Shown here in pieces: positions 4,451 through 4,939 of a stretch of 6,025 nucleotides of DNA; position 1 is the first letter of the stretch, and the number at the start of each line of letters is the position of its first letter. Under the pieces are notes generated by a model. That model was given only the letters and a program-made list of their open reading frames with translations. It did not search any database and was not told the origin of the DNA. Source of the DNA: a virus. Lineage: Duplodnaviria > Heunggongvirae > Uroviricota > Caudoviricetes. Made by a program: the position numbers and the translations under genes. The stretch covers positions 1 to 6,025 of IMG/VR virus record IMGVR_UViG_2681813226_000023, one strand, 5' to 3'.

Positions 4451-4939
4451 ATGGCATTAACGACCAAAAAAAAGCGGTTTGCTGATGCGTTATCAAGGGG
4501 CGCAAATCCCACGGAAGCCGCTATACATGCGGGATACAGCGAAAAGACCGCAAGGGTTAAAGGCTGGCAGCTATCCAACGATCCTGAGGTGAAAAAGTAT
4601 CTTAAGGCTGTAACTTCTGATGTAACTTTTCAGGTTACAAAACCGAAAAAAGTTACAAAGAAAGTTACCGAAAAAGTTACACCGGAACGGGCATCAATTA
4701 ACACCATTGAGATGATGGATAACGGCCTACCCGACCCCATCAAAGCAATGGGCAGGATACTGATTGACAACATGGACACAGATCCAAAACTGGCTTTAGA
4801 TGCCGCGTTTAAGCTGGCCCAGTTCACCCACCGCAAGATCGGCAGCATTGGGAAAAAAGAGGTTAAAAAACTCAATGCCGCTAGTGTCTACTCAAATCGG
4901 TTCCCCATCCCTAAGCCACCAACAGACTTAAAACACTGA
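4451..4939 (+). CDS. terS: Terminase small subunit-like protein (Terminase_2-type N-terminal HTH), 162 aa
   Basis: ATG 4451 with GAGG 8 nt upstream; N-terminus MALTTKKKRFADALSRGANPTEAAIHAGYSEKTARVKGWQLSNDPEVKKYL matches the canonical TerS signature (LT.K...F......N.T.AAI.AGYS.KTA). Stop TGA 4937..4939. The GTG 4334 extension in the ORF track is not supported. Confidence 0.75.
   Translation: MALTTKKKRFADALSRGANPTEAAIHAGYSEKTARVKGWQLSNDPEVKKYLKAVTSDVTFQVTKPKKVTKKVTEKVTPERASINTIEMMDNGLPDPIKAMGRILIDNMDTDPKLALDAAFKLAQFTHRKIGSIGKKEVKKLNAASVYSNRFPIPKPPTDLKH
4610..4683. repeat. Cluster of six (A)AGTTAC(A) motif copies inside terS: two inverted, one degenerate, three tandem with 12-bp period
   Basis: GTAACTT 4610..4616 and GTAACTTTT 4622..4630 (inverted); GGTTACA 4633..4639; AGTTACA 4651..4657, AGTTACC 4663..4669, AGTTACAC 4675..4682 (period 12). 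Same unit and period as the non-coding pair at 4406..4428; encodes the KKVT/KVT repeat linker. Confidence 0.55.

Follow-up and report, generated by a model that had tools for sequence, protein, structure and literature searches.

Why does a small terminase gene carry, inside its own coding sequence, tandem copies of a short DNA word that also stands in the non-coding DNA in front of it? This question is raised by a 6,025-bp stretch of viral DNA (positions 1 to 6,025 of IMG/VR record IMGVR_UViG_2681813226_000023; the whole stretch is hereafter called the window) and by its small terminase gene, terS, whose product is TerS. A sequence-only reading of the window had reported three tandem and two inverted copies of the word at a 12-bp period in terS and a further pair upstream, and had proposed that the motif acts at the DNA level. 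Our analysis indicated that the array is a real, conserved DNA-level element, in which the DNA word is kept rather than the peptide. As judged from sequence comparison, it most probably represents a cosB-like array, partly overlapping the terS linker, which would give its bearer, a phage satellite of the phage-inducible chromosomal island (PICI) type, a packaging specificity of its own. No description of these arrays or of the packaging of this satellite was found in full-text literature searches.

A 12-bp-phased array before and within terS

The word AAGTTAC has eight exact matches in the window versus 0.65 expected, and none of 200 dinucleotide shuffles reached that number. Seven of the eight copies fall within 273 bp (4408 to 4680), two of them in non-coding DNA and five in terS. 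Plus-strand copies start at 4408 and 4420 (non-coding) and at 4650, 4662, and 4674 (terS), and minus-strand copies at 4610 and 4622, with a spacing of 12 bp inside each group. Tandem Repeats Finder called the same period for 4406 to 4428 and for 4646 to 4681. The three tandem and two inverted intragenic copies described before are confirmed. A sixth intragenic core, GGTTACA at 4633 to 4639, is a weaker direct copy, and the full array is composed of two non-coding, two inverted, and four direct sites, six of the eight lying in terS codons 54 to 77 (Table 1). All intragenic copies are in frame. Counted from the ATG at 4451, inverted copies read GTA-ACT and direct ones GTT-ACx, which bears out their translation as a linker of the KKVT type, and residues 54 to 77 are VTSDVTFQVTKPKKVTKKVTEKVT. 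A natural variant lacks exactly 24 bp, equal to two 12-bp units, and the unit number in relatives ranges from 2 to about 15.

Table 1. Coordinates and descriptions of the features in the window
Feature	Position	Strand	Description
Iterons	3251-3474 (region 3243-3479)	both	eight CTCTACC/GGTAGAG versus 0.35 expected, directly after the primase gene
cos-like core	4325..4381	+	G run, then GGACACCGCCCCCCGTCTCA; presumptive terminase/HNH cutting region, putative left end near CTCA at 4378-4381
A/T-tract spacer	4382..4405	+	TTCGTAGAAAATTTTGCTTTTCAA, between the cos-like core and the first site
Site U1	4406..4417	+	AAAAGTTACACG, non-coding; a copy at the equivalent position in all VT-type relatives
Site U2	4418..4429	+	AAAAGTTACACC, non-coding, 12 bp past U1
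terS	4451..4939	+	162-aa small terminase; helix-turn-helix domain 1-58, predicted disordered linker 59-83, helical C-terminal half 96-148
Site I1	4606..4617	-	TGTAACTTC on plus strand, GAAGTTACA on minus strand; Val54-Thr55; equivalent copy kept in L007, L009, and L087
Site I2	4618..4632	-	TGTAACTTTT on plus strand, AAAAGTTACA on minus strand; Val58-Thr59
Site D0	4631..4641	+	CAGGTTACAAA, weaker direct copy; Val62-Thr63; kept as CCGGTTACAC in L003
Sites D1-D3	4646..4681	+	tandem 12-bp units AAAAAAGTTACA, AAGAAAGTTACC, and GAAAAAGTTACA, encoding KKVT KKVT EKVT

The upstream pair (U1 and U2) is truly non-coding, as the sequence-only reading had held, since RefSeq and all homologues start terS at the ATG at 4451; GAGG stands at 4440 to 4443, 7 nucleotides before it. 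An in-frame GTG at 4334 would extend terS to an open reading frame (ORF) of 201 amino acids (aa), and the pair would then be read in another frame (K-S-Y-T). Yet another terS start is seen in a Shigella protein (P0002, 163 aa), which begins with MHGINDQ.

Codon usage in eight diverged terS genes bears directly on whether the DNA or the peptide is conserved. Linker Val codons are GTT in 23 cases, GTA in 8, GTC in 1, and GTG in none, compared with 15 GTT, 9 GTG, 7 GTC, and 10 GTA elsewhere in the same genes. Likewise, Thr following Val is encoded by ACA (12), ACT (7), or ACC (2) and never by ACG, compared with 18 ACG, 19 ACC, 15 ACA, and 8 ACT for Thr elsewhere. GTA-ACT is confined to inverted copies and GTT-ACA to direct ones across the lineages, and at other invariant residues, for example those of the AGYSEKTARVKG stretch, synonymous sites vary freely. 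Moreover, the motif is read in two frames that yield different peptides. One satellite-like relative, L087 (L numbers denote the loci compared), has AGG-TTA-ACT (R-L-T) beside GTT-AAC (V-N), and further second-frame readings are GCG-TTA-ACC in L003 and ATG-TTA-ACA and ATT-AAC-ATT in L216. Non-coding pairs at the 12-bp period are present in three lineages (the window, L003, and L088), and the period is thus a property of the array, not of the reading frame alone. The proposal of a DNA-level role is therefore supported by comparative data that include both synonymous positions and non-coding copies.

TerS of the window matches Pfam Terminase_2 (PF03592; SPP1/SF6 G1P type) over residues 3 to 57 with 42.4 bits against a cut-off of 26.1 (E=1.4e-10), and it matches phrog_641 with E=1.5e-43. 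A PDB profile search with the protein matched only the N-terminal domains of the Pam5 and SF6 small terminases. In an AlphaFold2 model built on 26 homologues, a four-helix N-terminal domain is confident, with a predicted local distance difference test score above 90 for residues 1 to 50; the score is below 50 for residues 59 to 83, and helices span residues 96 to 148. According to this model, the direct repeats code for the disordered linker, and the inverted pair codes for the terminal part of the N-terminal domain's last helix. Satellite TerS and the TerS of Shiga toxin (Stx) phages share 46% identity overall and ~61% over the C-terminal 72 residues (hand count on the alignment). Since the linker of the Stx-phage TerS is longer and has no repeats, TerS proteins of this family can function without the peptide repeat.

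Co-variation of the sites with TerS among relatives

TerS homologues with 51 to 65% identity carry Val-Thr (VT) repeats at the equivalent place in variable copy number. The VT-type loci include an E. coli element with HNH, terS, and capsid homologue genes (L003), a Hafnia alvei prophage with the large terminase gene terL (L005), a Salmonella satellite-like element (L007), and a satellite-like contig (L009). In these four loci, at least one AAAAGTTACAC stands right after the cos-like core, and the linkers contain inverted TGTAACTT (two copies in most, one in L005) followed by direct AAAAGTTACA. The sequence-only reading had itself named a check, namely whether homologous terS genes retain the DNA motif, and these relatives do so: they keep it at synonymous positions too, along with the non-coding copies at a fixed distance from the cos-like core.

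Homologues with 38 to 50% identity carry Val-Asn (VN) repeats instead, and their DNA shows GTTAAC or GTTAAT at the 12-bp period together with (A)AGTTAACC at the equivalent non-coding position. VN-type loci are found in a phage with 5 to about 15 units (L085/L086), in the satellite-like L087, whose order of terS, small ORF, and capsid homologue is that of the window, and in a Dryocola prophage (L088). In this phage, a metagenomic one, ~15 consecutive 12-bp RTTAAY units stand in the terS linker of L085 (3170 to 3410), and the near-identical L086 has five. A Morganella locus (L217) has GATTAACT upstream and TATTAACC and AAGTTAACC inside the gene, and a Proteus locus (L216) has TGTTAACAT upstream and ATGTTAACAG and TATTAACAT inside.

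Across 11 lineages of the TerS clade, non-coding and linker sites are always of the same variant. AAGTTACA is found both upstream and within the gene in the window, L003, L005, L007, and L009; AGTTAAC or RTTAAY is found in both places in L085/86, L087, L088, and L217; and TGTTAACAT is found in both places in L216. A cross-table of the upstream 7-mer against linker DNA is block-structured, with zero to two matches per ~350 bp outside the linker part of terS. Since AAGTTACA gives Val-Thr and (A)GTTAAC gives Val-Asn, the peptide change follows from the switch of the DNA word to GTTAAC, and the distant relatives have made this switch in non-coding and intragenic copies together.

By a period-4 motif count over 117 close TerS homologues, 14 have Val-Thr repeats, 15 have Val-Asn repeats, and the others have no such repeat. 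Homologues of this TerS number ~6,360 in all, and few comparable repeats are found in more distant representatives, as in P0129, which has six KVNK units at a 7-residue (21-bp) period. Genome-contig scans with the single TerS protein and with the homologue alignment revealed no relatives, and a protein scan of viral contigs yielded almost only the identical satellite and the Stx-phage type; the lineage diversity described here was therefore drawn from contigs encoding homologues. A scan of viral contigs for AAGTTACN5AAGTTAC gave mostly chance or unrelated matches (repeat proteins, a region beside an integrase gene, and an unrelated terS region) and is unusable as a census. In an unrelated environmental viral contig (L130, 5090 to 5370), non-coding (A)AAGTTACA pairs 12 bp apart, along with inverted copies, stand immediately before the genes of another kind of small terminase (a weak match to Sf6_terminase, below cut-off) and a T4-type terL; the word may represent convergent use or chance there.

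Resident phages of this TerS type have a different arrangement. In phage Stx2a_WGPS8 (L002), for example, the stretch between the core and terS is 230 bp long and contains five GTTAAC, with none in the gene. All 56 distinct E. coli phage loci of the type in IMG/VR have four or five GTTAAC upstream (five in 55 of them), and none of these loci has GTTAAC in terS or any GTTAC. Satellite loci, in contrast, have GTTAC only.

The satellite island and its cos-like core

The window matches the E. coli 2014C-3061 chromosome with 100% identity and there forms an island of ~9 kb between yljB and clpS (about L001 5257 to 13726). A search of 5,426 complete E. coli genomes recovered the terS region from 220, every time on the chromosome, and the serotypes carrying it include O157:H7, O26, O103, O111, and O121. 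The island encodes a tyrosine integrase and an AlpA regulator (Pfam) and a D5-type primase with D5_N and DUF5906 domains. Small ORFs follow, then terS, a 53-aa ORF, and a 307-aa capsid homologue; genes for terL, portal, and HNH proteins are absent from the island. An integrase, AlpA, a primase followed by an iteron origin, a size of ~9 to 15 kb, and an incomplete set of virion genes are all features of a PICI, and the island fits the published description of Gram-negative PICIs, among which carriers of terS are known (PMC6092414). The window, which had been read as a phage, is by its gene content a PICI-type phage satellite. Its terS is followed by the 53-aa ORF and the capsid homologue and not by terL, unlike the terS-terL order of phage homologues. 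The missing terL is expected, because this TerS is satellite-borne.

The CTCTACC iterons directly after the primase gene are likely the replication origin of the satellite. The terS repeats were also considered as origin iterons, and this was rejected because the origin word differs and sits at 3251 to 3474. No sigma-70-like promoter was found in 3800 to 5000.

Upstream of terS, positions 4325 to 4404 are ~79 to 84% identical to the non-coding spacer between HNH and terS in numerous lambdoid and Stx-converting phages; all related loci keep the cos-like core. An HNH gene immediately precedes the cos-like element and terS in every phage relative, and it immediately precedes terS in the satellite-like L003; in phage Stx2a_WGPS8 (L002), the order is HNH, spacer, terS, terL, protease/capsid. 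Because this gene order is that of HNH-dependent cos packaging, we take 4325 to 4381 to be the presumptive region of cos cutting. The phage Lys8385Vzw record opens exactly at ...CCGCCCCCCCT/CTCACGCAGAG (...CCCCCCCT/CTCACGCAGAG; ...CCCCCCCT/CTCACGCAG; the slash marks the opening point), a hint that would place the left end at ~4378 in the window. For the distances given here, the window anchor was set at 4378 in place of the automatic one. An equal-length CAGAGAAAAAAT...TTTTT element, the counterpart of the A/T-tract spacer, stands in every lineage, and throughout the lineages examined the distance from the conserved CTCA to the core of the first site is +32 to +35. To the right of the cos core, the window has U1 at 32 bp, U2 at 44 bp, and the six intragenic sites at ~230 to 300 bp. 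The repeated elements adjoin the cos region as in a cosB, the first of them at a conserved distance.

The G run at the left edge of the cos-like core (window 4326 to 4333) has 7 to 11 G among closely related strains (L091 to L094). In the Morganella prophage L217 (1330 to 1385), extra GTTAAC/GTTAAT words stand left of the G run, where the HNH gene ends; some lineages may thus have sites on either side of the cos core. The window has just one GTTAC left of the core, at 4305.

Three further features of the island were observed. The 53-aa ORF (4951 to 5112), located between the terS and capsid-homologue genes, gave a match to the TerS profile phrog_641 that covers the centre of the profile (positions 89 to 125, E=3.5e-7); BLASTP against the TerS of the window found no similarity, and the PHROG profile is the sole link. 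ORFs of 50 to 53 aa stand at the equivalent place in the satellite-like loci L008, L009, and L087 and are absent from phage loci; the 53-aa product could be a TerS-core decoy that interferes with the helper TerS. The 307-aa capsid-family protein (5102 to 6025) corresponds to the C-terminal capsid part alone of the fused protease/major-head proteins found in the phage relatives (phrog_617, phrog_10) and, by analogy with Ccm of SaPIbov5, may redirect capsid size. Finally, a terminator-like hairpin at 3850 to 3867 (AGCCGGAGCAATCCGGCT, then a T run) follows a 102-aa ORF (phrog_1231) and separates it from the small ORFs that precede the cos region.

A chimeric query, made of a satellite part and a phage cosB-terS part, matched 2 to 10 places in each of the 60 top satellite-bearing genomes (H120 to H179), and the satellite parts alone matched one per listed genome; every sampled carrier thus also holds one to nine phage-type cosB-terS loci. 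The source strain has two such loci of the GTTAAC type. Stx-type prophages with GTTAAC cosB-terS loci are therefore likely helper candidates, the co-residence being circumstantial evidence.

Reading the array as probable packaging sites

We consider it probable, on the strength of the comparisons above, that the AAGTTAC(A) units are recognition sites for the satellite's own TerS, analogous to the R sites of lambda cosB. As in the array, a short word is repeated in lambda cosB (R3, R2, and R1, bound by the TerS gpNu1) on the side of the cut that is packaged. The orientations are mixed, R3 being opposite to R2 and R1, and the distance from the cut to the first copy is fixed, a layout that resembles that of the array (PMC9026076, PMC6092414). 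The PICI EcCICFT073 has a cosN in common with its helper and a cosB that differs (PMC9026076, PMC6092414). The lambda R sites, however, are all non-coding and upstream of Nu1, whereas six of the eight sites here are inside terS as an in-frame 12-bp array. In addition, the TerS family of gpNu1, a dimeric winged helix-turn-helix protein, is not that of the satellite TerS, and the system described here is HNH-associated.

Other known systems share single features with this one. The TerS_S of Staphylococcus aureus pathogenicity islands (SaPIs) is likewise a satellite-borne TerS homologue, thought to recognise a satellite site and to work with the helper's TerL. The SaPI system is pac-type, however. 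Here, the satellite and the helper family have a cos-like core in common and differ in their TerS sites alone (GTTAC versus GTTAAC). In the E. coli PICIs investigated to date, the phage TerS is reprogrammed by Rpp (PMC6739421, PMC9026076), and the islands encode no TerS themselves. HK97 packages by HNH-assisted cos cleavage and has a single TerS site at +15 to +29 from the cut, beside an A-tract (PMC11331095), but its TerS lacks a helix-turn-helix (HTH) domain and recognises one 15-bp site as DNA is threaded through the ring, whereas the TerS of the satellite is of the HTH type. An array of 3 to about 15 phased sites fits a model of many domains on wrapped DNA better than HK97-style threading. 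A 12-bp step corresponds to ~41 Å and is compatible with neighbouring domains of a ring on successive units of wrapped DNA.

From these elements a mechanism can be proposed. After replication of the satellite, the HTH domains of an oligomeric TerS would bind successive sites, and the phage-like C-terminal half of TerS would recruit the helper's TerL and HNH proteins to the shared cos core; cutting at this core would be followed by packaging rightwards. A one-base difference in every copy, satellite GTTAC versus resident-phage GTTAAC, would keep the packaging of satellite and helper apart. The satellite would have a packaging address of its own and yet share the cutting site and motor of the helper. 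The linker would tolerate almost any sequence, so that sites could spread into it by slippage in 12-bp (four-codon) steps, and the lysines would be a by-product of the A-tract of each site. A broader reading, which we advance only tentatively, is that a clade of HNH-cos phages and their satellites carries in the TerS linker a 12-bp-phased TerS address label of 3 to ~15 units that templates binding of the HTH ring, and that a concerted GTTAAC-to-GTTAC switch created an orthogonal identity with the helper's cut site and motor kept. Because the array would then be written in the disordered linker of TerS, site and peptide repeat would be two readings of one sequence.

Several observations weigh against recognition by the satellite's own TerS. 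VT-type TerS proteins form one clade, so the co-variation does not amount to many independent trials, and the GTTAAC-to-GTTAC switch may have been a single event. A single TerS residue that would fix the site variant was sought and rejected: only position 20 splits the groups (Pro/Ser versus Gln/Lys/Arg), and weakly so, and Arg35 is common to the Stx-phage TerS and the VT group. Exact-pattern matches elsewhere put the bare motif in unrelated contexts too, and the cos cut site is placed by homology and by the opening point of one phage record. Lastly, the TerS of HK97, a protein from another fold family, reads just one site, by a threading mechanism (PMC11331095).

The alternative that fares best, although we regard it as unlikely, is that the sites are operators, either for another DNA-binding protein (a late-gene regulator or a nucleoid protein of the host, for example) or for autorepression by TerS alone with no role in packaging. 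Short phased repeat arrays are typical of operators, the upstream pair lies 22 to 45 bp before the start of terS, where a bound protein could affect expression, and SPP1 gp1 is reported to repress its own synthesis (PMC6316719). The array, however, stays at a fixed distance from the cos core in phages and satellites with differing regulatory and replication modules, and the motif variant follows the TerS clade although the hosts are all Enterobacterales with conserved nucleoid proteins. A promoter-like site was not found nearby, and autoregulation is in any case compatible with packaging sites for TerS and not exclusive of them.

Still less probable is a headful pac site of the P22 or SPP1 kind, the analogy drawn by the sequence-only reading, in which TerS binds its own gene and TerL cuts nearby with no fixed end. 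The recognition sequence does overlap the TerS gene in SPP1 (pacL, pacC, and pacR, bound by gp1) and lies within it in P22 (gene 3), as do six of the eight sites here; SPP1 gp1 is a Terminase_2 protein of the same Pfam family as the satellite TerS, and its pac overlaps the promoter, the ribosome-binding site, and the DNA-binding-domain coding part of gene 1 (PMC9611059, PMC6316719). The array, in contrast, overlaps the linker, and both of its clusters stand on one side of the putative cut, whereas the SPP1 sites are split across ~200 bp and flank it (PMC6316719, PMC9611059). A tandem in-frame array or a peptide repeat that tracks the sites is not described for SPP1 or P22. Above all, these two are headful packagers that have neither cos nor HNH, unlike the relatives of the window, all of whose phages show the HNH-terS-terL-protease/capsid order typical of HNH-dependent cos packagers. 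A conserved element consisting of a G run, a C run, and CTCA stands between HNH and terS and is common to the satellite; headful packaging of a 9-kb satellite would also need a matching small capsid, which is possible. The pac analogy thus gives way to that of lambda cosB R sites that overlap terS.

The least probable account, and one that the comparative sequence data largely refute, is that a flexible Lys/Val/Thr-rich linker is maintained at the protein level or arose by neutral slippage and that the upstream copies are coincidental: copy number does change by whole 12-bp (four-codon) units, the region is predicted to be disordered, and lysine-rich linkers could aid non-specific DNA contact, but synonymous positions are fixed across lineages of 51 to 65% identity, one DNA word yields different peptides in two frames, the reverse-complement word is retained, flanks included, at the inverted sites, the non-coding sites share both period and variant with the coding ones, and the Stx-phage TerS works with a long linker free of repeats.

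If the units are packaging sites for TerS, the clade would provide natural material on an aspect of HTH small terminases that neither the wrapping nor the threading model explains, namely their sequence specificity, most of these proteins binding DNA weakly in vitro (PMC9611059). It offers phased arrays of a defined word, natural copy-number variants of 2 to about 15 units, and natural specificity variants (AAGTTACA, AGTTAAC, and TGTTAACA), each with its own TerS, and it is a tractable system for gel-shift, cryo-electron microscopy, and site-swap work. The array is also an example of a cis-acting signal shaping a protein sequence, which is relevant to the annotation of TerS linkers and to evolutionary analyses. 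For E. coli, the island would represent a class of satellites that redirect packaging by a TerS of their own and private sites, rather than by Rpp, and this bears on gene movement in Shiga-toxin-producing strains.

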